Source: a virus
Length of the DNA stretch: 64,000 bases
Strand: one strand, 5' to 3'
Virus record (IMG/VR): IMGVR_UViG_3300032307_000369
Coordinates: 30,875 to 94,874 of that record
Shown here: piece by piece, positions 2,501 to 58,300 of the stretch
Position numbering within the stretch: position 1 is the first letter of the stretch
Layout of the letters: each line of letters begins with the position of its first letter
Made by a program: the position numbers and the translations under genes
The notes under the pieces: generated by a model
What the model saw: the letters and a program-made list of their open reading frames with translations, nothing else
The model's database searches: none
What the model was told of the DNA's origin: nothing

Positions 2501-3394
2501 ATGAAACAAATAGCAATATTAGCTATACTATTGGCATCTACATCAATAGCTATGGCGCAGAGTAGAATTGGCACTATTGCCGATGAAGTAGTAAAAGAAA
2601 CATCAACAAAGCAAAATCTTCCAGATCTTTCTGGAGAGTCACAAACACTGCCACCAGTAGTAGTCACAGCAGAAAAAATAAATCAGTTTGATCGAGTTGG
2701 TCCATACAATCAGCCAGTATGGACTACTACTAGAATGTTCCCTAGTACTAGAACTTATGTTATGACTCCGCCAGGTACAGTTATGTACGAAAAATGGTTT
2801 GACTTTAGAAATAGACGTAATGGTCCAACTCAGATTCGTATGCGTGATGAATTGGCTTTTGGTCTAGGAAATAGATTAGAACTAGACCTATACGCACACA
2901 CAGTTTATGATGGACCGTCAGAACAGAAAGAATTCAACTGGCGTGGCTTTAGTTGGGAGATACGATATGCTCTAGCTGATTGGGGCAAAATACCTGGTAA
3001 CCCTACGCTGTACTTTGAACATAAGTTAATTAACGGTCGTCAAGGAATTGAACCTAAACTTTTACTAGGGGACAGAATTGGTGAAACGGATTATATTTGG
3101 AGTGCCAACTTTATATATGAAGCTAACCTTGCCAAAGCCAATGCTGACAAAGAACGAGAGTACGCCGCTACATTTAGTTTAGGCAAGATTATTGATAATG
3201 ATCTTATGCTTGGATTCTCGTCTATGTATCGCTATCATAACTATGATCAAAACATTGAAGAGCTTTATGCTGGTCCGGTAGTAAATTGGCGGATCAGTAA
3301 ACAGGCTAGACTTAGTTTTGAACACATGCCTAGAATTAGAAGTGATGGATACAACGACAGCAGAAGTTTGTTTATTTTTGGATGGACTCTTTAA
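2501..3394 (+). CDS. secreted / outer-membrane-like protein, possibly a beta-barrel
   Basis: SD AAAGGTGA. N-terminal signal peptide MKQIAILAILLASTSIAMAQ. Alternating amphipathic strands and a C-terminal FIFGWTL. The specific family is uncertain. Confidence 0.5.
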   Translation: MKQIAILAILLASTSIAMAQSRIGTIADEVVKETSTKQNLPDLSGESQTLPPVVVTAEKINQFDRVGPYNQPVWTTTRMFPSTRTYVMTPPGTVMYEKWFDFRNRRNGPTQIRMRDELAFGLGNRLELDLYAHTVYDGPSEQKEFNWRGFSWEIRYALADWGKIPGNPTLYFEHKLINGRQGIEPKLLLGDRIGETDYIWSANFIYEANLAKANADKEREYAATFSLGKIIDNDLMLGFSSMYRYHNYDQNIEELYAGPVVNWRISKQARLSFEHMPRIRSDGYNDSRSLFIFGWTL

Positions 3395-3416: not shown

Positions 3417-3445
3417 TTGACTTAGGAAATAAATAGTATTATACT
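3417..3445 (+). promoter_or_regulatory. sigma70-like promoter, TTGACT-N17-TATACT
   Basis: Consensus-like -35 and -10 boxes with a 17-bp spacer, upstream of the dnaK leader. Confidence 0.45.
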
Positions 3446-3494
3446 ATACTATTATAACAGTATCAGAGCATAGCTCTTATTATATTATTAAAGC

Positions 3495-3520
3495 AGTGGG
3501 GGAGAAATCCCCCACTTTAC
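3495..3520 (+). terminator. stable hairpin, terminator or attenuator
   Basis: AGTGGGGGA-gaaa-TCCCCCACT, a 9-bp stem with a GAAA tetraloop, followed by TTTAC. It lies between the promoter at 3417 and dnaK. Confidence 0.4.
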
Positions 3521-3530
3521 AAATATAGAT

Positions 3531-3538
3531 TATAAATA
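3531..3538 (+). promoter_or_regulatory. TATAAATA late-promoter-like motif upstream of dnaK
   Basis: Exact TATAAATA about 78 nt upstream of the dnaK ATG. Confidence 0.3.
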
Positions 3539-3544
3539 ATTGCG

Positions 3545-3572
3545 TTACTGATGCACCTAATGGGCACAGTAA
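3545..3572 (+). promoter_or_regulatory. imperfect inverted repeat, candidate operator in the dnaK leader
   Basis: TTACTGaTGCaCC … GGGCAcAGTAA. The arms are reverse complements with two mismatches. A small GGGC-aaa-GCCC hairpin follows. Confidence 0.3.
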
Positions 3573-3615
3573 AAAGGGCAAAGCCCAAACAGATCTTACT
3601 TTAAAAGGAGATAAA

Positions 3616-5505
3616 ATGTCAAAGATCATCGGTATCGACCTCGGTACAACAAATTCATGCGTAGCCGTTATAGAGAACGGAATCCCCAAAGTTATTGAAA
3701 ACAGCGAAGGTGCTAGAACAACACCATCAATTGTTGCCTATGCCAATAACGAAATCTTAGTAGGTGCTAGCGCCAAACGTCAAGCAGTTACTAATCCTAA
3801 AAATACAATCTATGCTAGTAAGCGTCTAATTGGACGCAAGTTTGAAGAGCAGGCTGTACAAAAAGACATTGACCTAATGCCTTACAAAATTGTTCGTGCA
3901 GACAACGGTGATGCTTGGATTGAAGCTAACAACGACAAACTTGCACCCCCACAAATCTCCGCTGAAGTTCTTCGCAAAATGAAGAAAACTGCTGAAGATT
4001 ACTTGGGCGAAACAGTTACTCAAGCAGTTATCACAGTACCAGCATACTTCAACGATAGTCAACGTCAAGCTACTAAGGATGCAGGTAAGATTGCAGGTTT
4101 AGAAGTATCGCGTATTATTAACGAACCAACTGCGGCTGCTCTTAGCTACGGTGTTGATAAGACTGACAAAGCTGATAGAAAAATTGCTGTTTATGACCTT
4201 GGTGGTGGAACATTTGATGTCAGCATTATTGACATTGCTGATGTTGATGGTGACAAACAAATTGAAGTACTGAGCACTAACGGAGACACGTTCTTGGGTG
4301 GTGAAGACTTTGACCAACGCATCATGGACTACTTAGTTGATGAGTTTAAGAAAGAACAAGGTGTTGACCTTAAGAAAGACATGTTGGCACTACAACGCTT
4401 AAAAGAAGCCAGTGAAAAAGCCAAGATTGAACTATCAAGCAGTGCGCAAACAGATGTAAACTTGCCTTACATTACAGCAGATGCAAGCGGACCTAGACAC
4501 ATGGCAATTAAATTGACTCGTGCTAAATTTGAGTCAATGGTTGAAGATTTGATTCAGCGCAGTTTAGATCCATGCCGTCAAGCTATGAAAGATGCAGGCG
4601 TGACAGCTAGCGACATTGACGAAGTTATTTTGGTTGGTGGTCAAACCCGTATGCCTAAGGTGCAAGAAGAAGTTGAAAAACTTTTTGGTAAGGCTCCACG
4701 TCGTGATGTAAATCCTGACGAAGCTGTTGCAGTTGGTGCGGCAATTCAAGGCGCTGTTCTAGGTGGTGATCGTAAAGACGTATTGCTATTAGACGTAACT
4801 CCTTTGAGTCTTGGTATTGAGACACTGGGTGGTGTGATGACCAAGATCATTCAAAAGAACACAACTATCCCAACTAAAGGACAACAAACTTTCTCTACAG
4901 CAGAAGATAATCAACCAGCTGTGACAATCAAGGTGTTCCAAGGCGAACGTGAACTTTGTCAGCATAATAAAATGTTAGGTGAATTTAATCTTGAAGGTAT
5001 TGCTCCAGCACGTCGTGGTCAGCCACAGATTGAAGTTACTTTTGACATTGATGCTAACGGCATTATGAACATTAGTGCTAAAGACAAATCAACTGGCAAA
5101 GAAAACAAGATCACTATTAAATCTGATAGCGGCTTGAGCAAAGAAGAAATTGAAAAAATGATTCAAGATGCTGAAGCAAATGCTGAGGCTGATAAGAAAG
5201 CACGTGAACTAATTGATTCTCGCAACAATGCAGAATCGCAAGTACACTCTGTTAAGAAAGACTTAACAGAATATGGTAGTAAAATTACTGAAGCTGATAA
5301 GTCTAACATAGAAACTGCTATTACACATGTAGAAGATTCTATCAAAGGCAATGATGCTGAAGTGATTACTAAATCAGTAAGTGCATTGTTTGAAGCAATG
5401 ACACCACTGATTCAAGCAAAGACTAGTACTGCTTCAGAAAGCAACAACAATAATCAAGACGATGTTGTTGATGCTCAATACACTGAAACACCTAAGTCTG
5501 AATAA
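3616..5505 (+). CDS. dnaK: molecular chaperone DnaK (Hsp70)
   Basis: SD AAAGGAG. Full-length Hsp70 signatures [18 protein letters not shown] and [11 protein letters not shown], collinear with proteobacterial DnaK from the nucleotide-binding domain to the acidic C-terminus. Confidence 0.95.
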
Positions 5506-5553
5506 GGTACCTTTAAGGGCCTAATTTGATTCTTACTTTAAAAGGAGATTATC

Positions 5554-5988
5554 ATGAATCAACTAAGAACTATAGATGCAGATACATTAACAAAAGCTCT
5601 AATTGGATTTGACACAATGTTTGATCAATTCGAACGTAGATTTTCTAATTCAATTAGCAACACTTACCCTCCTCATAATGTTATCAAAATTGATGACAAC
5701 AATTATGAGATCCAAGTGGCTGTGACTGGTTTTGGAAAAGACGAAGTCACTGTTGAACTTGATCAAAATGTATTAATTGTGACTGCTGGTAGAGATGTTG
5801 CAGAAGATGAAAAGACATATCTACACCGAGGACTTGCACAACGCAATTTTGTTCGCAACTTCCCGCTTGCTGAACATATTGAGGTTAAAGGTGCAGAACA
5901 AAAGAATGGCATCTTGTCAATTAGACTAGAACGCCTTGTTCCAGAAGCACTCAAGCCACGTCGAATTAATATCACGTATTCAGAGTAA
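5554..5988 (+). CDS. small heat-shock protein, Hsp20/alpha-crystallin family (IbpA-like)
   Basis: SD AAAGGAG. Alpha-crystallin domain architecture (…YEIQVAVTGFGKDEVTVELDQNVLIVTAG…, GILSIRL). Followed by a terminator. Confidence 0.8.
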   Translation: MNQLRTIDADTLTKALIGFDTMFDQFERRFSNSISNTYPPHNVIKIDDNNYEIQVAVTGFGKDEVTVELDQNVLIVTAGRDVAEDEKTYLHRGLAQRNFVRNFPLAEHIEVKGAEQKNGILSIRLERLVPEALKPRRINITYSE

Positions 5989-5992
5989 TTGG

Positions 5993-6025
5993 CAAAGGGG
6001 CCACTTGTGCCCCTTTGTTATTTGT
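5993..6025 (+). terminator. rho-independent terminator
   Basis: CAAAGGGGC-cacttgt-GCCCCTTTG followed by TTATTTGT. Confidence 0.65.
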
Positions 6026-6060
6026 AGTATAATAAGTAAAAATAATATTTAGGAAATTAA

Positions 6061-6363
6061 ATGGGTGAAATTGCTACCAAACAAAAAAGTCTAGTAACTA
6101 CAGATCTAATTGAACCTAGAAAGTTCAAAGTGATCTTCTTCAATGATGACAAAACTCCAATGGACTTTGTTATAGATTTGCTAATCAACTTGTTTAACCA
6201 TGATCAAACTAGTAGCAGTAAATTAACAATGGAAATTCATCATGAAGGCTCAGCAGTGGTTGGTGTTTATCCTTATGAAATAGCCGAGCAAAAAGGAATT
6301 GAATCCACACACATTGCACGACAAGCAGGATACCCATTACTAATTAAAGTTGAATCGGAGTAA
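6061..6363 (+). CDS. clpS: ATP-dependent Clp protease adaptor ClpS
   Basis: ClpS core KVIFFNDDKTPMDFVIDLL…HHEGSAVVGVYPYEIAE, about 100 aa, with an SD upstream. Confidence 0.8.
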   Translation: MGEIATKQKSLVTTDLIEPRKFKVIFFNDDKTPMDFVIDLLINLFNHDQTSSSKLTMEIHHEGSAVVGVYPYEIAEQKGIESTHIARQAGYPLLIKVESE

Positions 6364-6365
6364 AG

Positions 6366-6911
6366 ATGAGTTTACGGGAAATTACTAAAGATCTACATCA
6401 CGAAGCAGAAACAACAAAGTTTGCTAAGATGCTACTAAGTGGTAAAATTGGCAAGGAAGATTACAGAAACTATCTGTATAACTTACTAGCAATTTACGAT
6501 CCAATTGAGTGGTACTGTAAACGTCAGGGCTTTCTTACTAACATGCCAGACCTGCCAAGACTCAAGTCTATCTATGCAGATTTTACAGAATTAGATGAGT
6601 GCGGATATTACTACCTAACTCCTGCTACATTAGAATATCAAACATACTTACATAAACTAGGCAATGATCCAGAACGTAAACATCTTGTTAAGGCGCATTT
6701 ATATTGCCGCCATATGGGCGACCTATTCGGTGGCCAAATCATTAAGAAGCAAGTAGCACATATTTCAAGTGGTAAGTTTTACGACTTTGAAAATGCTGAT
6801 GCTATGAAGATGGCTATTCGTGAAACACTTACAGATGACTTGGGTGACGAAGCTCGGGTGGCATTTGAATTTGCTATTAAAATGATGCGTGATCTCTATG
6901 CCGGAGAGTAA
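6366..6911 (+). CDS. heme oxygenase (short HO family)
   Basis: LREITKDLHHEAE…, LYCRHMGDLFGGQIIKK matches the HO proximal and distal helix motifs (RYLGDLSGGQ). The start is coupled to the clpS stop. Confidence 0.7.
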   Translation: MSLREITKDLHHEAETTKFAKMLLSGKIGKEDYRNYLYNLLAIYDPIEWYCKRQGFLTNMPDLPRLKSIYADFTELDECGYYYLTPATLEYQTYLHKLGNDPERKHLVKAHLYCRHMGDLFGGQIIKKQVAHISSGKFYDFENADAMKMAIRETLTDDLGDEARVAFEFAIKMMRDLYAGE

Positions 6912-7584
6912 AGTATGGGACACCCTAATTGAAATCCAAGCTCTACTTGAGACGTCCTTTGAAAAAACAGGAGTCGAAGTCTTCGAGCCTGGCATGGATC
7001 GTTTTAATCAACCTGGTTGGGTTAATCGTGTATGGACTAGCGATAAGTATCGTAGGGCCCACGTTGATGTCGTCGATGCTAGGCTAACCAAAGGTCTTTG
7101 GATGATGCACTGTTGCATCTTCCCGCATACACATAATCCAGCTCCAATTTACGGCTTTGATGTTATTGCTGGTAAGAATAAAATTACTGGCTGTTTCCAC
7201 GACTATTCAAAAGCAGGTGATCCTAATCATCCCATGATGCAGTGGTTTCATGATGAAGTCAGTAAGTTAGAATGGCGCAGAGAGCGAACTTTACCTGAAT
7301 GGGCCACTAACATTTTTAGTGGTAGCATGGTTGCCGCAGGCAATGTACAAGATGAACAAGAACTAGAGCAAATTACTAATCTTGCTAAAACCACTATAGA
7401 ACACTATCTAAGCACAGTTGCTGATACTAACAATACCGTTCCTGATACTACATGGGATCAAAACTACTACGCACAGAATCAAAAATGTAACCCGCATACA
7501 CCCAGAGTTATGGTTAGTTTAGGGCTTTCAGAAGATGATGTCAAGCATTTTATACAGGAATGTCTGTTTCCAGAGATTCGATAA
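6889..7584 (+). CDS. ferredoxin-dependent bilin reductase family (PebS/PcyA/PcyX-like)
   Basis: About 230 aa directly downstream of heme oxygenase and overlapping its end. The size, acidic/aromatic composition and synteny (HO then FDBR) match phage bilin reductases. The start is GTG at 6889 or ATG at 6898. Confidence 0.5.
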   Translation: MISMPESKVWDTLIEIQALLETSFEKTGVEVFEPGMDRFNQPGWVNRVWTSDKYRRAHVDVVDARLTKGLWMMHCCIFPHTHNPAPIYGFDVIAGKNKITGCFHDYSKAGDPNHPMMQWFHDEVSKLEWRRERTLPEWATNIFSGSMVAAGNVQDEQELEQITNLAKTTIEHYLSTVADTNNTVPDTTWDQNYYAQNQKCNPHTPRVMVSLGLSEDDVKHFIQECLFPEIR

Positions 7585-9406: not shown

Positions 9407-9480
9407 ACACTAATTCACTAAGCATTTAATTTGTTGCCAGTTCTCCGTTAAATAATAATGACGGAATTCGGAGAGCGAGC

Positions 9481-22779: not shown

Positions 22780-22880
22780 GGGAGTGTTGCTAATATTGGC
22801 CTAAGGGCAGAGCTTATACCTCTGTAAGCACCGTCTAGATAAGGCGGCGAATGTGGGTTCGATTCCCGCCACTCCTACCA
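22780..22880 (+). tRNA. atypical tRNA-like element (about 101 nt including CCA, anticodon unresolved)
   Basis: Canonical 3' half: T arm GTGGG-TTCGATT-CCCGC, acceptor 3' strand CACTCCT, discriminator A, CCA. The only complementary 5' strand is GGGAGTG, giving G1:U72 and about 25 extra nt in the 5' half. GGGAGTG also pairs with an upstream AACACTC as a hairpin. Confidence 0.35.
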
Positions 22881-24484: not shown

Positions 24485-25573
24485 ATGTCTTATTTTCTCA
24501 AATCTGGTAATACATTCCGCGTCAGTTCTAAAGAAGCCATGGACTTGCATGACAAGTTGCCAGCAGGTAACTATGTGGTTAAAGAGATGCCCATGGATGG
24601 CCCACTTTACCTAGAGCATATTGACTCTTTTGAAGTCAAAGGCAAACGTTACGGTGACTTGGACAAGAATACTGATCGTATTCTTAATACCTTTATGAGC
24701 CGTACAGCATCTACAGGTGTTATGCTTGCAGGTGAAAAAGGTTCTGGCAAGTCATTGCTGGCTAAGAATTTGGCCATTGTTGCGGCTCGTGACATGAACA
24801 TTCCATGCATTGTTATCAATGCTCCTTGGGTTGGTGATAAGTTTAACAGTTTCATTCAAAGCATTGAACAACCATGCATGGTCTTGTTTGATGAGTTTGA
24901 AAAAGTTTACGATAGCGATGACCAAGAAAAGGCATTGACCTTGCTGGATGGTGTATTCCCTAGCAAGAAGCTGTTTGTCCTAACTTGTAACGACAAGTGG
25001 CGTATTGACCAGCACATGCGTAACCGTCCAGGTCGCCTGTACTACATGTTGGACTACAAAGGTCTTGATGCGGCATTTATTACTGAGTACTGCATGGATA
25101 ACTTGAAGCCAGCACTGCAAAAGCACACTGAAAAGTTGTGCCAAATTGCCAGCTTGTTTAGCCAGTTTAACTTTGACATGTTGAAAGCAACAGTTGAAGA
25201 AATGAACCGTTACGATGAAGAACCACAAGATGCTCTGCGTATGCTGAACGTCAAGCCAGAGTTTGATTCAGGCAACAAGTTCACAGTCAAGCTACAACTT
25301 AACGGTGATGAGCTGAAAGACACTGATTTGGAAAGCCAAGAGTGGAGTGGTAACCCATTGCAAAGCCAAGTTCGAATCCACTACAAGAATTTTGCTGAAC
25401 AGCAAGATGACGAAGGAGATTTGGACTGGGATTGGGAACGTTTGCATTTTGAAGCTATTGACTTGAAGAAGATTGATAGCCAAACTGGTAAGTTCGTATT
25501 TGTTAAGGATGGCGCTGTGCTTACCCTTAACAAGGTTAAAGAAAAATCTTATAACTACTACGATGCTTTTTGA
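24485..25573 (+). CDS. P-loop ATPase (AAA-like)
   Basis: Walker A GEKGSGKS and Walker B VLFDEFE. The acidic C-terminal half is unknown. Confidence 0.6.
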   Translation: MSYFLKSGNTFRVSSKEAMDLHDKLPAGNYVVKEMPMDGPLYLEHIDSFEVKGKRYGDLDKNTDRILNTFMSRTASTGVMLAGEKGSGKSLLAKNLAIVAARDMNIPCIVINAPWVGDKFNSFIQSIEQPCMVLFDEFEKVYDSDDQEKALTLLDGVFPSKKLFVLTCNDKWRIDQHMRNRPGRLYYMLDYKGLDAAFITEYCMDNLKPALQKHTEKLCQIASLFSQFNFDMLKATVEEMNRYDEEPQDALRMLNVKPEFDSGNKFTVKLQLNGDELKDTDLESQEWSGNPLQSQVRIHYKNFAEQQDDEGDLDWDWERLHFEAIDLKKIDSQTGKFVFVKDGAVLTLNKVKEKSYNYYDAF

Positions 25574-30576: not shown

Positions 30577-31377
30577 ATGAGCTATCCGTATTTGATTCAA
30601 GGCAATAATGTTGTTGTGGTAATTGACAACAAGCCGCACACTATCAGCAAGACACATATCACTTACCAAAAGGTAGTTGATGCAATTAAAGCTAATGACT
30701 GGGAAACAGTTAAAGACACAATTGAACCTAAAAAGGTTGTACTAGAGTACGGCAAAGGTAACGTTGAAGTCCAAGGAGAACAGTTGTTTTGGAAAGGCAA
30801 AGCGTTTCATAATGCTTTGGCAACTCGTATGATCCAAATGTTGCAAGATGGTTTCCCAGTGGAACCTCTAGTCAACTTTATGGAAAATTTGATGAAGAAC
30901 CCTAGTTACCGTTCAGTAAATGAACTGTATGGTTTCTTGGAAAAGAACAACTTGCCAATTACCAGCGATGGTCACTTCCTTGCTTATAAGAAAGTTCGTA
31001 AGGATTATAAAGACTGTCATACTGGTACAATGGATAACAGTATTGGTCAAGTGGTTGAAATGGAACGTCATAGTGTTGACGACAATGCCAACAATACTTG
31101 CAGTTCTGGTTTGCACTTCTGTTCCAAAGAGTACTTGAATAGTTTTGGTGGCGACCGCACTGTGATTGTTAAAATCAATCCTGCAGATGTTGTTAGTATT
31201 CCCACTGACTATGACTTTAGCAAGGGTCGTGCTTGCCGATACGAAGTTATTGGTGAGTTGGGTGTACATCCAGACGATGCTTTCAAAGCACCTGTTCAAG
31301 ATGAAGCCTACACACAAGAGCAACTGGATGCCGCAGTTAAGGCCGCAGTTGAAGCCGCTCTTAAGGTAACACAATGA
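30577..31377 (+). CDS. rIIB: rIIB-like protein
   Basis: About 267 aa, coupled to the upstream gene (TAAAATG). Assigned by synteny and size only. Confidence 0.35.
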   Translation: MSYPYLIQGNNVVVVIDNKPHTISKTHITYQKVVDAIKANDWETVKDTIEPKKVVLEYGKGNVEVQGEQLFWKGKAFHNALATRMIQMLQDGFPVEPLVNFMENLMKNPSYRSVNELYGFLEKNNLPITSDGHFLAYKKVRKDYKDCHTGTMDNSIGQVVEMERHSVDDNANNTCSSGLHFCSKEYLNSFGGDRTVIVKINPADVVSIPTDYDFSKGRACRYEVIGELGVHPDDAFKAPVQDEAYTQEQLDAAVKAAVEAALKVTQ

Positions 31378-37348: not shown

Positions 37349-37764
37349 AAATTGGATTTACATGTAGCACGTTTGATTTGTTTCATGCAGGGCATGTAAT
37401 TATGCTTGAAGAAGCAAAGAAGCAATGTGACTTTTTAATAGTAGGTTTACAAACTGACCCAACCATTGATAGACCCAATACTAAAAACAAACCGGTACAA
37501 GGTGTGTTTGAACGTTGGACCCAATTAAAGGCTTGCAAGTTTGTAGATCAAATTGTTCCATACAGTAGTGAAAAGGAATTGCTAGACCTATTGCAATCTT
37601 TTCCTATTGATGTTAGAATAATAGGTGAGGAATACAAAGACAAATCTTTTACTGGTGATCATTTAGATATGGATTACCATTTTAATGAAAGACGACATAG
37701 TTTTAGTACAACAGAATTGCGCCAACGTGTGGTTGATGCAGAAAATAAAAAGGAAATAAAATGA
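37345..37764 (+). CDS. cytidylyltransferase (TagD / RfaE-domain-II-like nucleotidyltransferase)
   Basis: [15 protein letters not shown] is the HxGH motif of the CTP:glycerol-3-phosphate cytidylyltransferase family. Confidence 0.65.
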
Positions 37765-38381
37765 GTTTAGTCCCAATGGTAGTTGAAAAAAGTAATCAAG
37801 GTGAACGAGCCTATGACATTTATAGTCGATTACTCAAAGACCGTGTTATATTTTTGAACGGCGAAGTAGAAGATTACATGGCAAATGTAATTATTGCACA
37901 ACTACTATTCTTAGAAAGTGAGAATAGTGATTTGGATATTCACTTGTACATCAATAGTCCAGGCGGTAGCGTGAGTGCCGGTCTTGCAATTTATGACACT
38001 ATGCAGTTCATCAAACCAGATGTATGTACGTATGTCATGGGTCAAGCCTGTAGTATGGGCAGTTTCCTAGCACAAGCGGGTGCTCCTGGCAAACGAGTAG
38101 TACTTCCAGAATCACGCACAATGATTCACCGTGTGAGCTCAGGTACACGCGGTACAAGTGGTAGTATTCACGTACAAGACTTGCAATTTGAAGATGCTAA
38201 ACGTAGTTTTGAAGAAGCACAACGTATCAACAAACGTCTAACAGAATTGTATGTACGTCATAATACAGTGGGCAAAACATACGAAGAGCTATTTGAAACT
38301 ATGAAGTTTGATACTTTCTTGAGTGCCGCTGAAGCTGTTGCCAATGGTCTTGCTGATCAAGTGATTGCAAAACGTCCTTGA
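37761..38381 (+). CDS. clpP: ATP-dependent Clp protease proteolytic subunit ClpP
   Basis: Collinear with bacterial ClpP. Ser ([10 protein letters not shown]), His (MIHRVSSG) and Asp triad present, plus INSPGGSV. Confidence 0.9.
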
Positions 38382-42429: not shown

Positions 42430-42522
42430 AATTTAATCTCCTTGTATTTTAATTATGCCTACAGATTGTTCGATAAATAAAATTGTGAAAGCATTGAAAC
42501 AAAATATGCAGTTATAATACAG

Positions 42523-42551: not shown

Positions 42552-42598
42552 AATGAATGTGGGCCACGAACTACAATAACAATAAGGTTCAATTAGTT

Positions 42599-43324
42599 AT
42601 GTTAAAAATTACAAATCTCTCCGTCAATTACGACGTTATTCCAATTTTGGAAGATATCAATTTAGAAATCAACGAAGGCGAAATTCACGCTATTCTAGGA
42701 CCAACAGGATCTGGAAAAAGTTCCTTGGCAAGTACAATAGCTGGTAAAACAGACCTCAGTGTTGTTAAAGGAAAAATAAACTTTAAAAGAAAATCTTTGA
42801 ACAGTTTAAATCCAAATGAAAGAAGTAAGTTAGGAATTTTTACAACCTTTCAAGAACCTCCTGAAATTAATGGGATCACAAATTTAAATTTAACCAGACA
42901 AATTTTAAATGCTCGTAATGACAAAAGATCATCAACTGACATTATTAATGATTACAAAAGTTTAATAAAACAATTTGATCTAGGAAGCGAATGGTCCAAT
43001 CGAGATTATAACGTAGGAGCAAGTGCAGGCGAAAAAAAGAAAAATGAAATTGTACAGTTACACATGCTCAATCCATCTCTTACAATTTTAGACGATATTG
43101 ACAGTGGTTTAGACTTAGACACACTAACCGAAGTATTTAAAAGTTTAAAAACTTTCCTATCACAAAAAGGAAAGGCAGCTATCATTATCACACATCAACC
43201 AACGATCCTTGAAGCAATCGAGCCCACCCATGTGCATGTTATCATAGATGGAAGAATCGTAGAGTCAGGTGATAAGAAACTAATTAAAAGGATCATTTCA
43301 AATGGCTATCGAGAGTTTTCTTAA
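42599..43324 (+). CDS. sufC: Fe-S cluster assembly ATPase SufC
   Basis: ATG 42599 with AAGG upstream. Walker A GPTGSGKSS, ABC signature and Walker B (LNPSLTILDDIDSGLD). About 240 aa, typical SufC size. Confidence 0.8.
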   Translation: MLKITNLSVNYDVIPILEDINLEINEGEIHAILGPTGSGKSSLASTIAGKTDLSVVKGKINFKRKSLNSLNPNERSKLGIFTTFQEPPEINGITNLNLTRQILNARNDKRSSTDIINDYKSLIKQFDLGSEWSNRDYNVGASAGEKKKNEIVQLHMLNPSLTILDDIDSGLDLDTLTEVFKSLKTFLSQKGKAAIIITHQPTILEAIEPTHVHVIIDGRIVESGDKKLIKRIISNGYREFS

Positions 43325-44126
43325 AGTTGATTCACAAGACCCAGATTGGTCAAACAGTCCCACTCAGTACTTTGGTAAAAAATTTAAGGTCATTGATGCA
43401 AATTGCTTAATGATAAAAGAAAATACTGATGACTTAATGGTTCTACGTATGAACCCAACTGAGTCAGATTTGCTGTGTAAAAATTTGCAAGTTCTTGGAA
43501 AAGATAGTAGTAGATTAGATTTGTTTATTTTATGTGACGGATCTAAAAATACTCAACAGGTTTTTATTTACAATGTAACTGCTGAGCCAGATTCAATTAT
43601 TAATATTGGAATTTTTGTTAAGGACGGAAAACTTAATAAGCATATTTTTGAATGTGAACTTTATGAGAATTCTGTTATTAACATTTTTGGTCTTGCAGAA
43701 AACGAAGTTGGTGGCAGTAGTGAAATCATAAGCAAAGTTTACCATGCAGGTCCTTGTGCAGAGAGCAACACATTTGTAAACAGTATTGCTGGAAAAAATA
43801 GTCGAACTGTTTTTCAAGGCATTGTCAAAATTGAAGAAGACATGATAGACAGTGTTGCCAGTGTAACTAACACTAGTATTACATGTGATGAAACTGCCCA
43901 AGCATTTAGTACTCCGCAAATGATAATTGATTGTGGACAAGTGAGAGCATATCATAACTGTGAAGTCAACACTGTTGACGAAAATAACATATGGTATTTA
44001 GAAAGCAGGGGAATTGATAGAAGTAGTGCTGAAACTCTATTAAAAACGTTGCATCAAGATAGTGTGTTGGACCTTGTTGAATATCAAGACATTAGAGATG
44101 AACTCAAAGATTTTTTCCAAAGTTAA
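43302..44126 (+). CDS. sufD: SufD/SufB-family Fe-S assembly protein
   Basis: C-terminal beta-helix region …CGQVRAYHNCEVNTVDENNIWYLESRGIDRSSAETLL resembles the SufBD core (Y..SRGI). Shorter than typical SufB. Confidence 0.55.
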   Translation: MAIESFLKVDSQDPDWSNSPTQYFGKKFKVIDANCLMIKENTDDLMVLRMNPTESDLLCKNLQVLGKDSSRLDLFILCDGSKNTQQVFIYNVTAEPDSIINIGIFVKDGKLNKHIFECELYENSVINIFGLAENEVGGSSEIISKVYHAGPCAESNTFVNSIAGKNSRTVFQGIVKIEEDMIDSVASVTNTSITCDETAQAFSTPQMIIDCGQVRAYHNCEVNTVDENNIWYLESRGIDRSSAETLLKTLHQDSVLDLVEYQDIRDELKDFFQS

Positions 44127-45246
44127 AAGCGATTTTACTTTACCAGACAAAACATACTTAAACAGTGCATCACAAACTTTAATTCCTAATCAAGTAAAAA
44201 ATTCCTACCTTGATATTTGTAATAAAATTGATGCAAGGAAAGAGTATGAAAATGTTAGACAAAAAGTAAAACTACTAATTAATTCTAAAAAAGATAATGA
44301 AGTAGTTTTTACTCAAGGCAACAATCATAGCATTAATATGATTGCCAAAAGTATTTGTCATAAATGGCATTCAAATGATTGTGTAATTGTTCCTGAAAGT
44401 GAGCATCATGCCAATTTACTCATTTGGCAATACATGTCAATTGAATACGGTTTTAGATTTGAAACTGTAAATGTTATCAAAGACGGCAGCATGGATCTTG
44501 GTCATCTTGAAGACTTGCTAGACAGTTGTGATGGTAAAATATTGTTCAGCATGAGTCACATATCCAACAGCATTGGATATGTACAGCCTGTTAAGAGTAT
44601 TTTTGACAAGGTTAAAGAGTATGACGGAATAACTCTACTAGATGCAAGTTTGAGCATTGGTAGAGAATTGATAGATGTGCAAGAGTTTAATATTGATTTT
44701 CTAACATTTACTGGTCATAAATTTTATGGTCCAACTGGTGTTGGTATATTATATGGCAAGCAAAAATATTTAGACAAGTTAGAGCCTACTATATTAGGCG
44801 ACAGTAATAGCACATTATTACCATGGAAATTAGAAATTGGTAAACCTAATATTGCAAGTGTAGTTATGTTAGGTTCAGCAATTGATTGGTTTACATCATA
44901 TGATTTAGAAAGTTTTCATACCTACGATAAACTTATGAATGCAAATTTTCAAATGATGTTAAATGAATTAGACTTTGTAGAAATATTTCATCCTGGTTAT
45001 TATAAGGGAGGATTAATTGGATTTAATCTACATGGACACCATCCTGCGTATGTGGGTGAATTTTTGTCTAATGAAGGTATTGTATTAAAATATGGACATT
45101 TGAATGCAAGACCTATTGTAGAAGAAAAGTTCCCAAATGGTATACTTAGATTAAGTTGGGCCTGCTATAATACTAAAGAAGACGTTGAACAATTAAGGCA
45201 AGGACTTATAAAATTCTACGATAAATATAGTTCTAAAAGGACATAA
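44098..45246 (+). CDS. sufS: cysteine desulfurase SufS (class V aminotransferase)
   Basis: FTGHKFYGPTGVGILYG carries the PLP-lysine motif. The N-terminus DFTLPDKTYLNSASQ resembles SufS DFP…YLDSAATS. The ATG at 44098 overlaps the sufD end. Confidence 0.7.
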   Translation: MNSKIFSKVKSDFTLPDKTYLNSASQTLIPNQVKNSYLDICNKIDARKEYENVRQKVKLLINSKKDNEVVFTQGNNHSINMIAKSICHKWHSNDCVIVPESEHHANLLIWQYMSIEYGFRFETVNVIKDGSMDLGHLEDLLDSCDGKILFSMSHISNSIGYVQPVKSIFDKVKEYDGITLLDASLSIGRELIDVQEFNIDFLTFTGHKFYGPTGVGILYGKQKYLDKLEPTILGDSNSTLLPWKLEIGKPNIASVVMLGSAIDWFTSYDLESFHTYDKLMNANFQMMLNELDFVEIFHPGYYKGGLIGFNLHGHHPAYVGEFLSNEGIVLKYGHLNARPIVEEKFPNGILRLSWACYNTKEDVEQLRQGLIKFYDKYSSKRT

Positions 45247-45249
45247 AAT

Positions 45250-45639
45250 ATGGCTTATTCTTCACAAGTAATTGATCATTATGAAAACCCTAGAAACGTA
45301 GGTTCATTTGATAAAAATGATAATGATGTTGGAACTGGTATGGTTGGAGCTCCTGCTTGTGGTGACGTTATGAAATTGCAAATTAAAGTTAATGAACAAG
45401 GTATTATTGAAGATGCAAAGTTTAAAACTTATGGGTGTGGTAGTGCTATTGCTAGTTCTAGTCTTGTCACCGAGTGGCTCAAGGGCAAGAACTTGGATGA
45501 GGCACAAGCCATTAAGAACTCAGATATCGCTACTGAACTTGCGTTACCGCCCGTTAAGATTCACTGTTCAATATTAGCAGAAGATGCTATCAAAGCCGCA
45601 GTAGCAGATTATAAAGCTAAACATGATAACACTATCTGA
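45250..45639 (+). CDS. iscU: Fe-S cluster scaffold IscU/SufU-like
   Basis: Three conserved Cys in the contexts [17 protein letters not shown] and HCS. Begins [17 protein letters not shown]. Confidence 0.8.
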
Positions 45640-46227: not shown

Positions 46228-46308
46228 GCCATTATTTACATTAAGTTTATAAAACTATAAGGTAAATAAAGTGGACAGTTGGTATATCACCCAAATTTGG
46301 AGTTAATA

Positions 46309-49300
46309 ATGGCAAGAAAAGACGTTAATATTGGTTTAACAGGTAACGATGGAACAGGTGACAGCATACGTGATGCGTTTTCCAAAGTTAATGCAAATTT
46401 CCAAGAACTTTACGCTAGTCAAGGTCTAGAGGCCGGACTAACATTTGATAACTTAGTTGACGTTATCAAACCACTTAGACCTAACACAGTTTTAGGCTTA
46501 GACAGCTTAGGAAAAACTATTGTTAGTAGAGATTTAGAAGCGGCTGTTGGTATTAGTATTGACACCGTCAGTGATCCGTCTAAGATAATCTTTAGTATTG
46601 CCAACGTTCAAATTAGACAAGACCCAACACCAACACTGTCAAACGTACTAGATGGAAGTGGGTTCAAACTAAGTTTCATTGGTGATCCAGAAAATGACCA
46701 AGATGCTGTTACTAGAAAATGGGTATACCAAAATTTCTTAAACAGAGATAACATTGACAAGTTAGGTACATTTGACCTAGCCGCTGGCAGTGTCATGCGT
46801 CAAAATTTCAAGATCAGTCCAACTCCAGATAACGGCAATATTAATGCTGGTACAAAAATTATTAATGTTTTTGGTTCAGATGGCGTTACACCAAAAACTG
46901 ATGTTCAGTTAAAGTTTCAAGCAACACACCCTGCTCATGCAACTCGAAAAGATTATGTAGATACCAAGCTGTCATTACAAGGTACTGAGACATTAGATCC
47001 AGCAACTGGCTTTGTAAACAAAGGCATGGGTGTGATGACAGGTCCATTGATTTTAAATGATCACCCTGGACAGTATGTTGAAATTGATAGGAAGCCAGAT
47101 GGCACACTGTTCGTACAAGAAGATTATAGAGCAGCCACAAGAGGGTATGTTGATTCCAAAACGTATTCTGCCGCAGGTAACATATTTGTCAGTACAAAAG
47201 GTAATGACGACATGTGGGATTTTGACAACAATCGTCCAAATCCCATTTATGGATATCCTGAGGAAGAAATTGGACGTAGTTGGAGTAAAGCATTTAAATC
47301 AGTAAATGCCGCGTGTCGTTATGCAACACGAATTATAGATGCTGTTGAATTACAAAATATTCCATATCAAGTTACTCCACAACAAATTTCACGTTGGGCT
47401 CCTCCATTTACAACGCCAATTACAAGTCCAAGAACTCGTGTGCGTGTTAGCTTACAAAATCACGGATTCAAAGATGGAGACTACGTTTTAGTTAGCGGAG
47501 CTATCTTAGGATCTTTAGACACAAGAAATTTAAACGGTATTCACAGAGTTAATGCGTTAGATGTTAACAATTTTGAATTAAATTTAAAATCACTGGTAAC
47601 ATGGCCAAATCCAGAAGTTGCACCTGGCGGCACTATTAGTATTTCGTTGGCTAATAAAAAGGACGGTCCTTACAGTGAAATTTCTAAGGTTGACTTTGGC
47701 TTTAGAGGATTCTTTGTACCAAAACCTGAAATTACTATTATGGTTGAATCAGGAGTTTACTTTGAAGAAGCTCCTATGTTTGTTCCACCAAACTGTGCTA
47801 TTAAGGGCGATGAATTTAGACGTACTTTAATTAAACCAAAGCCAGGACCAGTTAATCCTGATAATCAGCTTACTAAATTTGTTCGTGGTGATAGAAGTCA
47901 AAGTGCTACCTTTTGGTATAACTCACACTACTACAATCAATTGTCAAGATCAGTTGGAACCACTAACGTGGTTGGTAGTACAAAATTAGAAATTAAAAAT
48001 AGTCCTTATAGACCAAAGAGTGGTATGCGATTTATTGTGGGTACTCTTGGTGGTATACCAAACGTATATCGAGTTGGACGTGAAGTTAACATTGTTTACA
48101 AAGAACCAAATCCAGATTTAAATATTGCTCCTGGAACATATATCATGGACATCGTTGATGACAACGGTGATCCAAAACCATTGGCAACTGGTATTCCAGA
48201 TTCAACAACTATAGAATTCTTGTTAGACCACGAACACTGTGATGCCATGCTTGTTGCTGATGCATTCCAGTTGCGTAATATAACAGTTATAGGATTTAAG
48301 GGCTTTGCTATGGCCTTTGATCCTAAGAGACAAATTAAAACACGTTCTCCTTATGCTCAAGTTGGCGCTGTATTTGCTGGAGAAGGTGGTGGTGGTCAGT
48401 TGGTTGACGGTATGTCTGGTAACCAAGTATGTTATGTATTAGACACTAGTTATACTGATCCGTTTACTGGAACACAAGGTTCTAGTGGACTTAAAATGAC
48501 TGTTACTGGATTAGTACGTACTCCTGAAACTCCAAATACATTTTTCTTGGCTAAGAAAAAATATGTCATTATCGATTCCACAACTCCAGATTCCAACGGT
48601 ACTGCTACATTAACTTTAAGTACTACAACTCCAATTGAAGTTGATGATACTTATTTGCCTGCAGGTTTTATTCCAAACGGTTCTCAAATTTTAATTGAAA
48701 CTGCTGGTAACCGATCAATGTTGTCTAACGACTTTACCATGATTAACGATTTAGGTTATGGTCTTGTGTGTGAAAATAACGGTGTTGCAGAAGCAGTTAG
48801 TCAATTTACATACTATTGCCGTGCCAGCTATTTGTCTAGATCAGGTGGACAAATTCGTTCGGTAACAGGATCAAGTTGCTATGGTATTATTGGTTTACAA
48901 TCTGAAGGTAGCGATCCTAACGAAGCTATTCAGATTGGTAGAATTAAAACTGACATTGGTAACATCATGCAGGTTTACATTGATGATCCTAGTGCAGATG
49001 GCAACCAAGGTGCCGTAAGTTTGGTAATGGGAGGTTTGGCAAGTAAGCCTATAAGAAACTCTACATTCAAATTAACCAAACACGAAATCATTATTAAAAA
49101 TATTGCTCGAGCAAGATTGAGTGGTGGTACACTAACAACTGGGCCGCTAGTTGTAACAACATATTATCCTCATCCTTTCTCAACTGGAGAGAGTGTACAA
49201 ATGACCAGTGTGAGAGGATTGCAATTGCCTGCAATTCCTCCAAGTACTACCCCAAGAGCAACTGATGTTGATGGAAGAGTTTATACTATTACTTCTGTTA

Positions 49301-52300
49301 ACAGTCACACGTTTACATTAGATGGAAGTGAAAGCACTAATTATATAAATGATTTAGGAACTTATAATTTTGCTGACTTACCAGCTCGTGCTATATCTAA
49401 TCTAGTAATTGGAGCACAAGATGTTGTGTTTTCAATTAAGGGAGATCCTAGTCCATCTAATATTACAGGTAGAGCTAGATTTGATGGCATTCCAGGCGAA
49501 AACCAAGCTGGACAAAATGTATTAAAACTTCAACGACTACAGCGTCCAGCTGTTGTTGGAATGAAAACAACTATTCCTGGCGGAGTGTTGACCTACACTG
49601 TAACTGATGTTACTGAAAAAGTAGTTACATTTAAACCATCTCCAAGACCAGCACCTACTGGTGACAATGATAATAAAATTGGTGCACAAACCATTTATAT
49701 CTACACCACTACAGATATAACTACAGGTGCTATTAATGGCACAACACTTACTGCTACTAATTTAGATCAAAATAATGTTGGACAATTAGTCACAGGAGCC
49801 ACTGTAGCTGACAACACATACATTATAGCAGTGACCAGTCCTACAACAGCGACTGTGTCAATAAGTCAAACTGTTACTAACAGAACTTTAGAATTAAGTT
49901 GGGTTCCTAAAATAGGCTGGAGTTTCCAGCATTTAGACACCAACATGGGTCTACAGTTAAATTATACTAGATATACAATTACTGATACTCCAGTATATGA
50001 TGCTGTATCAAATAGATGGGCTGTTACCTTAGATGTTCCGCTAACAGTCAATATGCAAAATCAAGAAGCAACTGGTCAAACGACTATTGTTGACGGAATT
50101 TGGGACGTTACTTTAAACTATGATTTAGAAACAAGCATCGCTAACAGTGTAAACCCAGTATCATTTACGTTTGTTGATTCGTATTGGGTTACAAGCATTG
50201 ATCCGTCATTGACCAACCCAATACCTACTGTTACTGATGAATACAATAGAGTACGTGCTCGTAAGATTAATTTATATCAGCAAAAGACAATTAGTGTAAG
50301 TCAAATTTTAAACAGACCTGCTATTATTAACAGCTCTGCTTTAAGATTCTCATCTTCAAACTATGATCCAAGTATATATCGTATTTTAGGTAAAACTTCT
50401 GATGGCGGTATTACACAAGATAGATATGCTGTTACTACTACTATAAATCCACTTAGTGGTCTTAATACGAATGCTGTAGAGAAAGTATTAGCAAACAAAA
50501 CTTGGATACAGTCTGAAGTTATTAATTACTTGGCTACAATTTATCCTAATTTCCAATACAATGTTAACACTTGTTATCGTGACGTTGGATATATTATCGA
50601 TGCAGTACTTTATGACTTAACTTACGGCGGTAACGTAAGAAGCCGTGCCGCTGGTATTAGTTATTACCAACAAGGTAATCCAAGTGCGGCTCTTGTATTA
50701 AGTCAGCAAAAAGTAGAAACAATTGATGCAATTAATTTTGCGACCACTGCGGCAATAACTGCCTTAAATCAATATAGTGGCGCAACAGTACCTCAATTAC
50801 AACTACCATATCGTGGAAGTAATTTAAACGGTGTTGCACAATTACAGGCAAATAAACTGTTTATACAAGATGAAGTTATTGCATTCTTAGCACAAACATA
50901 TCCTACTTTACAGTTCAATCAAACTACTTGTCGTAGAGACGTTGGATTGATTATTGATGCTGTTGCATACGATTTAGAGTATGGTGGTAACGTGGCAACT
51001 AGAACGGCTGCTCTAGCATACTATGATGGATCAACAAGCTCACAGTATGTGTTGTCTAATCAAAAAACCCAAACCATTGCTGCCATTAACAGAGCATCTA
51101 CAGTTGCTCAACAAATTGTTTTAGAAACTGCTGTAACTGCGACTGCTGGCAACACTGCAACACAAAATACTGCTGGTACTCCTGGAGTTGCTGGTGTTGA
51201 TGACGTAAGAGTTCAAACATTAATGAACATTATTACTAATGTTCTACAAAATGGTACTTCTGTTGCTCCAACTAGAAATTTAGGAATTAGAAGAAGTTAT
51301 CAAGATCCTCTAGGTGTAGAGTATGCCCCACAAAGTATTGACAGTGGCATTGTAGCAGAAGCCGGTGCTGCCACAGCATTGCAAGCTCTAATGGACCAAA
51401 TTGTAGCCATAATTGAATTTGGCACTACAGGCCCGCATGTTGTTGTACAGCCACAAGTGTTAGATACTTTACAGGCAATTGATTTCCCACCAACTGCAAC
51501 ATCATTACAATATGGCGCAGTATTAACTGGTCCTGGAATTCCTAAAGCAGGAGTTAACGGCGTTACCGAAGATACATTTATTAGAACAGTGACTCAATTG
51601 TTTGATGAAAATCAAAATACAATTGGCTACAGAGCTAGAATTAGTGCGCCAGTAACACAAGCAATTCCTGCTGGTACAGAAATTGTTATTACTGGTCCTG
51701 GTAGTGACTTCTTATTTGATCTAAACACTCCACTAGACCTTAGACACTTAGCAGGCGATGTAATTGGTATCACTACCACATTCTCAACTGTACGTGCAAC
51801 TGGTCATGATTTCTTAAACGTTGGGGCAGGTGGATATGATGACTCTAACTATCCTAATAACGTTTATGGTCAACCAGTTAATACGCCATCTGACAGTGCA
51901 ATTGCTAAAGAGGTTGGGACTGGTCGTGTGTTCCACGTGTCAACTGATCAAAATGGTAATTTTAGAGTAGGTAGCTTCTTTAACGTTAACCAAGGTGACG
52001 GATCTGTTAGTATTAGTGCTAAAATTGGTTTAAGTGCTGTTACAAGTTTAAGTTTCTTAACTGGTGCAACCGTTAACCAATTCTCAACTGATTCTAAGTT
52101 AGACGACAATAGTGACAACATTGTTTCTACACAAAAGGCAATGAAGACCTACATCAATAACTTGATTGACGGTCGTTTTACAATTGACAATACTGATACT
52201 CCACAACGTGGTCTATTAAGACTTGACGGCGAAAGTATCATGGTTGGTGATTTAGATGTTGGTTTGAACAGTGTTGAACGTATAGTAAACAGTCCAAACA

Positions 52301-54843: not shown

Positions 54844-54880
54844 GATATCCTAAAATAAATAAGATGAACAGGAACGAAAA

Positions 54881-58297: not shown

Positions 58298-58300
58298 AAT

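Follow-up and report, generated by a model that had tools for sequence, protein, structure and literature searches.

The 64,000-nucleotide stretch analysed here (positions 30,875 to 94,874 of the IMG/VR virus record IMGVR_UViG_3300032307_000369, hereafter the window) carries a group of chaperone and protease genes, dnaK, hsp20 and clpS, with clpP further downstream. Two of them, dnaK and hsp20, are each preceded by a short leader of common design. The genes and leaders are likely to constitute a conserved chaperone module, in which ROSE-like leaders on dnaK and hsp20 would limit translation by means of a hairpin containing the Shine-Dalgarno (SD) sequence. The genes were identified from a listing of open reading frames (ORFs) and Pfam scans. 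The main features are as follows, with bulged bases in square brackets.

3531-3538, plus strand: TATAAATA, the motif of T4-type late promoters (a promoter type defined by this sequence as its -10 box, without a -35 box, 5' of late genes)
3545-3572, plus strand: dnaK hairpin I (the imperfect inverted repeat of the first-pass annotation), with a bulged A between C-G pairs, a CC/GG apical stem and a UAAU loop
3576-3586, plus strand: dnaK hairpin I', GGGCAAAGCCC, a small extra hairpin present in one subclass of dnaK leaders
3593-3612, plus strand: dnaK hairpin II, in which AUCUU[A]CUU pairs with AAGGAGAU (SD at 3605-3610) and A3598 is bulged
3616-5505, plus strand: dnaK, full-length Hsp70, 629 amino acids (PF00012, E = 3e-261)
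5505-5522, plus strand: hsp20 hairpin I, AGGU[A]CC UUUAA GGGCCU, starting at the dnaK stop codon (covariance model score 41.6 bits)
5530-5549, plus strand: hsp20 hairpin II, with the same 19-mer TCTTACTTTAAAAGGAGAT as at dnaK (SD at 5542-5547)
5554-5988, plus strand: hsp20, IbpA-type small heat-shock protein, 144 amino acids (PF00011)
6061-6363, plus strand: clpS, N-degron adaptor of ClpAP, 100 amino acids (PF02617, E = 2e-25)
37761-38381, plus strand: clpP, cellular type, 206 amino acids, 31.4 kb downstream (PF00574, E = 8e-65)

The first-pass annotation had placed DnaK, an IbpA-like Hsp20, ClpS and ClpP here, and all four genes are present and intact. The PF00012 match of DnaK spans model positions 1-596 of 599, and the protein aligns end to end with residues 1-597 of E. 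coli DnaK with no frameshift; it has intact ATPase motifs, interdomain linker and substrate-binding domain. Hsp20 shares 45% identity with E. coli IbpA along the full protein and keeps the counterparts of Y34, R93 and R97, while K98 is replaced by Asn. ClpS, aligned to residues 21-104 of E. coli ClpS, retains the NDDxTPM sequence and the pocket residue His66; the N-degron pocket consists (in E. coli numbering) of N34, D35, D36, T38, M40 and H66. The Ser, His and Asp residues of the ClpP triad are visible in GQACSMG, MIH and FDTF. The ClpP and ClpS of the window are 64% and 40% identical, respectively, to those of phage PA5oct.

It is thus broadly right to speak of a proteostasis cluster. The further claim, that the phage rebuilds both the folding and the degradation arms of host proteostasis, holds as far as the intact chaperone and Clp genes are concerned but is otherwise overstated. 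There is no tblastn match to GrpE or DnaJ in the window with bacterial queries, Pfam scans of the larger window ORFs gave no J-domain or GrpE, and no ClpA or ClpX was found in the window, where the sole AAA+ ORF (24485-25573) is not Clp-like. Judging from this gene content, the phage DnaK, ClpS and ClpP must rely on the host for DnaJ/GrpE and ClpA/ClpX.

Structure and specificity of the leader

A scan of IMG/VR returned 571 relatives of the window DnaK, and locus comparisons were made on the best 80 (L001-L080). Upstream regions were compared over the 230 nucleotides 5' of dnaK in 78 related loci. These show a leader of fixed design, 85 nucleotides long, which is kept in front of dnaK even though the upstream gene varies. 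It consists of NATAAATA, a gap of 4-6 nucleotides, a hairpin, in one subclass a small additional hairpin, then AGATCTTACTTTA-AAGGAGAT or TCTTGCTTAAT-AAGGAGA, and finally the ATG. The RNA leader itself is approximately 55-70 nucleotides long and begins just 3' of TATAAATA. As the first-pass annotation had suggested, TATAAATA at 3531-3538 behaves as a genuine T4-type late promoter, because 11 of the 12 NATAAATA sites on the plus strand of the window lie directly upstream of ORFs (the minus strand has only one site) and because the spacing to hairpin I is fixed, at 4-6 nucleotides in 62 of 65 distinct dnaK leaders. Among the genes of the window no gp55-type sigma factor was seen.

Hairpin I follows one plan in 115 of 130 distinct leaders. 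Above a variable lower stem comes a U-G or C-G pair, next a single purine bulged out of the 5' strand, and after it C-G and C-G/U-A pairs; the loop is often UUCG or GNRA. The bulged base is a purine in 113 of the 115 bulged hairpins (A in 59, G in 54), the U1 pair is C-G in 111, and the L1 position beside the bulge is a U-G pair in 63 of 98 distinct rows. Pairing is conserved here and sequence is not, with 4-6 types of pair at each position. In a model-based alignment, helix 1 is 99% paired and has compensatory double changes in seven of its nine pairs; this alignment was fitted to the structure and so favours helix 1, but the position-anchored count (115/130 leaders) agrees with it. Double changes occupy 228 cells, compared to 65 ± 10 in shuffled alignments, none of 500 shuffles reaches 228, and slid controls are far lower. 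Hairpin I' also shows a compensatory change, with GGGC..GCCC against GAGC..GCTC in relatives.

In hairpin II, (A/U)UCUU[R]CUU is complementary to AAGGAGA(U/A), which includes the SD. Both arms are nearly invariant, which limits the covariation that can be observed. The flanking pair n2-m2 nevertheless covaries, being A-U in some leaders and U-A in others (71 of 126 are paired, compared to 52 ± 5 in shuffles), CUC variants convert the wobble pair to C-G, and in cyanophage S-RSM4 the sequence GUCGCUU/AAGGAC represents a compensatory change. The minimum free energy structure calculated with RNAfold, from the presumed start of the RNA to the AUG, is the two-hairpin form in both window leaders, with hairpin II formed and the AUG unpaired; the minus strand has a weaker fold in which hairpin II does not form. 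Both window leaders therefore share a layout of a stable GC-rich hairpin I and a 3' hairpin containing the SD, to which the dnaK leader adds one extra hairpin. When the start of the coding sequence is included, the calculated accessibility of the SD rises between 4 and 45 °C from 0.34 to 0.73 for dnaK (25 nucleotides of coding sequence) and from 0.42 to 0.68 for hsp20 (22 nucleotides).

The leaders fall into two subclasses according to the bulged base. We note that in the A subclass the leader sequence GATCTTA is complementary to codons 2-4 of dnaK (TCTAAGATC), and that the corresponding complementary pair in the G subclass is TTGCT and AGCAA. Base pairing between the anti-SD and these codons (GAUCUUA/UAAGAUC or UUGCU/AGCAA) is seen in folds that include coding sequence. 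We have not adopted it as part of the structure, because hsp20 and groES share the leader and have unrelated coding starts, and because two states amount to at most one evolutionary event.

The element is highly specific in its location. The 19-mer TCTTACTTTAAAAGGAGAT occurs exactly twice in the 64 kb (0.03 expected), 7 nucleotides 5' of the dnaK ATG and 4 nucleotides 5' of the hsp20 ATG, and 24 of the 26 exact copies in IMG/VR precede dnaK or hsp20. A looser regular expression, applied to 964 kb of related loci, matched at 82 dnaK, 73 hsp20 and four groES genes, with none on the minus strand; it had no match in the 830 kb of sequence surrounding the 80 most similar bacterial dnaK genes. A covariance model (R1) was then built from 43 leaders. 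With filters off, R1 scores only the dnaK and hsp20 leaders in the window and has no match upstream of clpS. It finds 117 sites in the phage loci, every one ending at the start of dnaK, hsp20 or groES, and none in the bacterial dnaK loci. R1 also finds the leader at the hsp20 start in all nine cultured phages sampled, six of them cyanophages. Phages positive with R1 include Melnitz, Mosig, S-RSM4, S-RIM2, S-RIM8, S-MbCM6, ACG-2014d and the Sinorhizobium jumbo phage Phosso, and the leader is also found 5' of hsp20 in Synechococcus phage ACG-2014f, as it is in Melnitz and Mosig. At the level of sequence, these searches show the element to be restricted to phage chaperone genes.

Relationship to ROSE thermometers and competing explanations

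ROSE-like RNA thermometers have a 3' hairpin in which U(U/C)GCU pairs imperfectly with the SD, with the G bulged and flanked by a U-G wobble on one side and a C-G pair on the other; the versions at Pseudomonas ibpA have just two hairpins (PMC3669281, PMC11342760). The phage leaders resemble in particular the short ROSE_3 type and the E. coli ibpA thermometer. Both are 5' untranslated regions of around 60 nucleotides in front of an IbpA-type small heat-shock gene, composed of two hairpins. Hairpin I is GC-rich, and one bulged base on its 5' side precedes an apical stem of CC(G)/(C)GG; the 3' hairpin contains the imperfect pairing UCUYGCU/AGGAG, where a bulged purine separates a U-G or C-G pair from a C-G pair; and the AUG is unpaired. 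The E. coli ibpA leader reads UUCUCGCU..AGGAGC and ends UUCUCGCUGAUUUCAGGAGC, where the corresponding anti-SD/SD stretch is UUCUUGCUUAAU..AAGGAGA in related phages and AUCUUACUUUAAAAGGAGAU in the window. The Rfam model ROSE_3 (RF02523) aligns over its full length with the Melnitz copy (34.1 bits, E = 4e-4, below the gathering score of 43), and its consensus carries the same bulged hairpin I. A geometry of U-G, bulge and C-G is predicted for the window copies, where the bulged base is A, whereas it is G in the other subclass; G is present at this position (as UUGCU or UCGCU) in 74 of 126 distinct related leaders and in all nine copies from cultured phages. We conclude that the element is ROSE-like and probably homologous to ROSE_3. 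There are also differences from ROSE_3 and ibpA: the element is encoded by a phage, starts at a T4-type late promoter rather than a sigma32 promoter, and is found 5' of dnaK and groES as well as 5' of an IbpA-type hsp20. It ends at the start codons of hsp20 and dnaK, and dnaK is an atypical target for a ROSE element.

Several observations weigh against a ROSE-like leader that occludes the SD. Both window copies read UUACU with a bulged A, rather than the defining U(U/C)GCU with a bulged G; the Rfam ROSE models do not match the window leaders even at E ≤ 10; and ROSE_3 gives only 17 bits on the cyanophage copies of S-RIM2 and S-RIM8. Phage copies thus either fall below the Rfam gathering threshold or are not matched. 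The window copies are consequently not filed here as members of ROSE, since they are below threshold and have A where the family has a bulged G. On the structural side, RNAalifold at 37 °C on MAFFT alignments (-35 to +32) gave no consensus hairpin II; MAFFT misaligns the SD register, and the helix is weak at this temperature. Helix 2 reaches only 77% pairing in the covariance-model alignment and covaries little. In a nearest-neighbour model, which does not capture non-canonical pairs, dnaK and hsp20 rank in the middle of 54 genes for SD accessibility, which rises only from 0.41 to 0.49 between 10 and 40 °C, and the whole hsp20 leader folds no better than shuffled sequences (z = -0.2). Finally, the bulged base is the same in hairpins I and II of 108 of 115 leaders (A/A in 55, G/G in 53) and, where both leaders of a genome were compared, dnaK and hsp20 agree in it in 40 of 44 pairs. 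A trans-acting reader of the leader would explain such concordance, but so could shared ancestry, and it may simply reflect descent in two sub-lineages rather than co-evolution.

Rfam searches of the window leaders and of one related locus, L025, gave no ROSE family and only noise, including a sub-threshold match to freshwater-2 RNA (RF02980) through the SD region. This family is a metagenome-derived candidate cis-regulatory RNA. Its two matches at L025 (5912-6003 and 7903-7985, with 13.8 and 20.2 bits) lie mostly in the AAGGAGAAAA..AUG end, and freshwater-2 may be another leader from the same group of phages.

The main competing explanation for the leader is that it is a generic high-expression signal, in which the 5' hairpin blocks 5'-end-dependent decay and the U-rich stretch and strong SD act as an epsilon enhancer of the T7 gene 10 type. 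The window sequence CTTACTTTAAAAGGAGAT does closely resemble TTAACTTTAAGAAGGAGAT of the T7 gene 10 leader; the epsilon sequence has been quoted as TTAACTTTA (PMC10557345). In addition, the late transcripts at 138 and 1308 also begin with a hairpin immediately after NATAAATA, the SDs of dnaK and hsp20 are the strongest in the window, and their predicted occlusion is only moderate. A signal of this kind does not fit well with a motif that is confined to dnaK, hsp20 and groES in approximately 1 Mb of phage sequence and that none of the 50 or so remaining window genes has, those behind late promoters among them. Furthermore, the bulged-purine and CC/GG core of hairpin I is missing from the plain hairpins of the late transcripts and matches the ROSE_3 consensus, and the UUGCU subclass resembles ibpA ROSE leaders, not epsilon. 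The restriction to chaperones and the specific bulged core weaken the high-expression explanation, and we consider it unlikely. The first-pass annotation read the inverted repeat at 3545-3572 differently, as a possible operator for a heat-shock-type repressor; on this reading an HrcA/CIRCE-like or HspR/HAIR-like protein would bind the DNA and control transcription of dnaK. Its position between a promoter motif and a heat-shock gene is indeed the usual one for an operator. The conservation is that of an RNA: it is the pairing that is maintained, not the sequence of the stem, the U-G pairs at L1 would be mismatches in the symmetry of duplex DNA, the bulge invariably lies in the 5' arm, UUCG or GNRA types form the loops, and the opposite strand folds less well and fails to form hairpin II. 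The CIRCE sequence, a 9-bp perfect inverted repeat (TTAGCACTC-N9-GAGTGCTAA), has no match in the window at up to three mismatches, and Pfam scans of the larger window ORFs revealed no repressor gene. The G-U pairs, one-sided bulge and weaker opposite-strand fold lead us to read the repeat as an RNA hairpin, and an operator is very improbable.

It might also be asked whether the cluster is bacterial DNA: a piece of chromosome, a contig placed in the wrong bin, or genes picked up very recently and without function. Some IMG/VR viral contigs are false positives, and the nearest bacterial DnaKs, from Burkholderiales-type Betaproteobacteria (Rubrivivax, Paracidovorax and Rhodoferax being closest), are 70-76% identical to that of the window. 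Yet the window encodes RIIA, a T4-type RNA ligase and three or four tRNAs, it has NATAAATA promoters, nearly all its genes are on a single strand, and it contains proteins whose cultured relatives are found only in Methylophilales phage Melnitz (50% identity) and Pelagibacter phage HTVC008M (35%). Bacterial dnaK genes have grpE and dnaJ as their neighbours, and none of those loci has hsp20, clpS or the leader. The phage dnaK ORF is intact and conserved (77-85% identity among phages), and a neighbour-joining tree splits 68 distinct phage DnaKs from the 80 most similar bacterial sequences with bootstrap support of 100/100. We regard the probability that the cluster is bacterial DNA as negligible. 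The RIIA gene, the tRNAs, the nearly one-stranded gene order and the homology to Melnitz and HTVC008M identify the window as phage DNA, related to Melnitz and the pelagimyophages, and not as a fragment of a bacterium.

Distribution, transcription and surrounding genes

The first-pass annotation described the combination of a complete Hsp70 with ClpS and ClpP as unusual, which does not hold among relatives. Among the best 80 of the 571 relatives (77-85% identity to the window DnaK), the order dnaK-hsp20-clpS is kept in around 75 loci, usually followed, as in the window, by heme oxygenase, bilin reductase and csgF/csgG. In some relatives groES-groEL is inserted beside dnaK (L003 7925-9873, L004 3102-5100, L045 2276-4230 and L046 3954-5900). 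The cluster is a conserved hallmark of a large uncultured T4-like lineage and not a singular oddity. The first-pass annotation had proposed comparing DnaK with alpha- and gammaproteobacterial and viral Hsp70s; the protein is of betaproteobacterial, Burkholderiales-like type and neither alpha- nor gammaproteobacterial. Phage DnaKs are 72-100% identical to each other and 64-76% identical to those of bacteria. This range, and the clean split of phage from bacterial DnaKs in the tree, fits a single old capture from a Burkholderiales-type betaproteobacterium followed by inheritance within the phage lineage; there is a hint that the hosts of the lineage are betaproteobacteria. The closest relative found, L187 (IMGVR_UViG_3300008110_000030, 214,617 bp), has its two 19-mers 1938 nucleotides apart compared to 1937 in the window, and near-identical N-termini of DnaK and Hsp20. 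The length of this contig suggests that the assembly is concatemeric or that the genome exceeds the 141 kb of Melnitz.

Apart from contaminated records, the only deposited phage genomes with a DnaK homologue were those of Lak and other huge phages; Melnitz and HTVC008M have none. Phage-borne DnaK, DnaJ and Hsp20 have been described in moraphages (PMC12619734). In carrying a DnaK of cellular type the window thus resembles Lak, other huge phages and the moraphages, but the DnaKs of moraphages and Lak are of Flavobacteriales or Bacteroidota type and represent independent acquisitions. In the same way, cellular-type Clp genes are shared with PA5oct-like jumbo phages, which have ClpS and ClpP together, and with Phosso, which has Hsp20, ClpS and ClpP. 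Gene order differs between the window and all of these phages. The hsp20 of Phosso carries the leader, and Phosso is the only member of this group (Lak, moraphages, PA5oct-like phages and Phosso) that was checked for it.

The closer resemblance is to Kyanoviridae (T4-like cyanophages and pelagimyophages), Melnitz and Mosig, which have the same IbpA-type gene and, in all nine sampled, the same leader. Melnitz and the pelagimyophages also share csgF/csgG and other genes of the neighbourhood (PMC7029224). Unlike the window, the cultured Kyanoviridae, Melnitz and Mosig are without dnaK, clpS and clpP; the window lineage adds these genes and has a duplicate of the leader 5' of dnaK. A study of Lake Baikal (Coutinho et al., 2020, PMC7678222) described a viral population, VP_1254, with scaffolds of approximately 17 kb that carry DnaK, curli genes and ribosomal protein S21, and so match the window lineage in described gene content. 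That paper used DnaK only to suggest a host (Methyloglobulus) and did not mention hsp20, clpS or the leader.

Three further features bear on transcription of the module.

3417-3445, plus strand: sigma70-like promoter match TTGACT-17-TATACT, 10/12 positions matching, outside the conserved element
3495-3516, plus strand: 9-bp GC hairpin with a GAAA loop, -17.7 kcal/mol, z = -4.6, upstream of the late promoter
5990-6020, plus strand: intrinsic-terminator-like hairpin, a 12-pair stem followed by a T-rich tail, at the end of the dnaK-hsp20 unit

All the features attributed to the dnaK leader by the first-pass annotation are present, but only the late motif and the inverted repeat belong to the conserved element. 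The sigma70-like site and the GC hairpin have no counterpart in the 80 related loci, where the upstream genes differ. Sigma70-like sites are not enriched in the region (21 found, 15.1 expected), and as a promoter the match at 3417-3445 has neither statistical nor comparative support. The GC hairpin has no exact copy in IMG/VR, and lacks a T-run and so does not appear in the terminator listing. Because it lies 5' of the late promoter, just as a GC hairpin lies directly 5' of the hsp20 late promoter in Melnitz, Mosig and cyanophages, it is probably a terminator or 3'-end stabiliser of the preceding unit (ORF 2501-3394) and not an attenuator of dnaK. The gap before the late promoter (3417-3520) contains a further hairpin at 3465-3477, also downstream of the sigma70-like match; the match and the two hairpins could mark a short non-coding transcript, or the hairpins may be just terminators. 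The NATAAATA promoters at 138-175 and 1308-1345 are each followed after approximately 5 nucleotides by a perfect hairpin (GTGGA-TGG-TCCAC and GTTGGA-TTTCT-TCCAAC), and late transcripts of this phage may generally begin with a 5' stem-loop.

The genes around the module include several others of note. Directly 3' of clpS, a heme oxygenase gene (6366-6911) overlaps that of a ferredoxin-dependent bilin reductase (6889-7584, GTG start); the pair is kept in most related loci, with heme oxygenase identities from 34% to 93%. A curli-type module follows at 9458-15145, consisting of CsgF (9458-9991), CsgG with a C-terminal SH3-like extension (9995-11233), a 324-residue protein that weakly matches Curlin_rpt (11331-12305, E = 5.5e-6), and two proteins with a FecR domain (12315-13421) and an F5/8 type C domain (13418-15145), respectively. 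CsgA and CsgB were reported to be missing in pelagimyophages (PMC7029224), and the curlin-repeat ORF at 11331-12305 could be the missing curli subunit. At 16495-18540 a CHASE2 sensor domain is fused to an adenylate/guanylate cyclase, with counterparts in Melnitz (50%) and HTVC008M (35%). Beside two tRNA-Leu genes, Rfam identifies a fourth tRNA-like sequence at 22780-22877 (38.7 bits) that is absent from the ARAGORN output; its length of 98 nucleotides may indicate an intron or a degenerate copy. A Suf set for Fe-S assembly comprises a SufC-like ABC ATPase (42557-43324), a SufD/SufB-core protein (43302-44126), a class-V aminotransferase/SufS (44062-45246) and a small ORF (45250-45639), with a NATAAATA motif at 42472. 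Finally, 46279-62542 is occupied by three consecutive very large ORFs (2854, 1138 and 1413 residues), the last with He_PIG Ig-like and E1_FCCH-like matches, which presumably encode fibre or host-recognition proteins.

Proposed regulation and significance

The arrangement suggests that dnaK and hsp20 form one late transcription unit, which would begin at the TATAAATA promoter (3531) and end at the terminator (5990-6020), with clpS in a separate unit after the terminator and clpP 31 kb away. Within the first unit each chaperone gene lies behind its own short ROSE-like 5' leader, composed of a stable hairpin I with its single bulged purine and apical CC/GG, and a hairpin II in which UCUU[A/G]CUU is predicted to pair with the SD sequence AAGGAG around a bulged purine, leaving the AUG free. 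The phage probably regulates its own chaperones at the level of translation, since, as we infer, hairpin II would keep translation low until it is opened. The leaders could act as thermometers, opened by heat as in bacterial ROSE elements, or as operators for feedback by an IbpA-type protein, if misfolded protein titrates the phage Hsp20 off the leader as happens with IbpA in E. coli. With either trigger, the supply of chaperones would track the folding load during the late synthesis of virion proteins, and the phage DnaK, ClpS and ClpP would operate with the host partners indicated above.

There is precedent for the second trigger. E. coli IbpA binds the leaders of its own mRNA and those of ibpB and rpoH and represses them, and aggregates titrate it away (10.1101/2020.04.20.050740; PMC10410725; PMC10474464). 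R93 is indispensable for this repression, Y34, R93 and R97 are needed for binding to the 5' untranslated region, and residues 97 and 98 are basic (PMC10474464). The phage system resembles the self-repression described by Miwa, Cheng and Taguchi in having an IbpA-type protein with 45% identity, equivalents of Y34, R93 and R97, and a ROSE-like leader on its own mRNA. It differs in the replacement of K98 by Asn, in that RNA binding by the phage Hsp20 is proposed by analogy, and in the presence of the leader on dnaK, and on groES in relatives, which would make it a small regulon rather than a case of self-regulation.

A bolder and distinctly tentative extension is that T4-like aquatic phages carry their own post-transcriptional heat-shock regulon, with a ROSE-derived leader that is read both by temperature and by the phage Hsp20. 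Such a regulon, for which we would claim no better than a minority chance, might span the cyanophages, pelagimyophages, Melnitz-like phages and the dnaK-bearing lineage, and couple translation of Hsp20, DnaK and GroES/EL to the load of misfolded protein. The concerted change from G to A at all four bulges of a genome would then represent co-evolution with the binding protein, or a retuned temperature set-point.

The stable retention of a bacterial-type DnaK with ClpS and ClpP provides a useful marker of the large uncultured lineage. The more interesting result is the ROSE-like leader, which is widespread 5' of hsp20 in cultured T4-like marine phages and bears on the regulation of a near-core gene of that group. 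In the literature searched, we found no published description of a ROSE-like leader on a phage chaperone gene, and no paper that links cyanophage hsp20 to an RNA thermometer. Leader-bearing phages available in culture include S-RSM4, S-RIM2 and S-RIM8 (on Synechococcus WH7803), Melnitz (on OM43) and Mosig (on Pelagibacter). If the leaders do have ROSE-like function, this would be the first ROSE-type element in a virus, and would extend ROSE-type control from small heat-shock genes to dnaK and groES. The chaperone output of these phages would then respond directly to temperature or proteotoxic load, which would be relevant to the effect of warmer water on the productivity of phages in cyanobacteria, SAR11, OM43 and freshwater betaproteobacteria.

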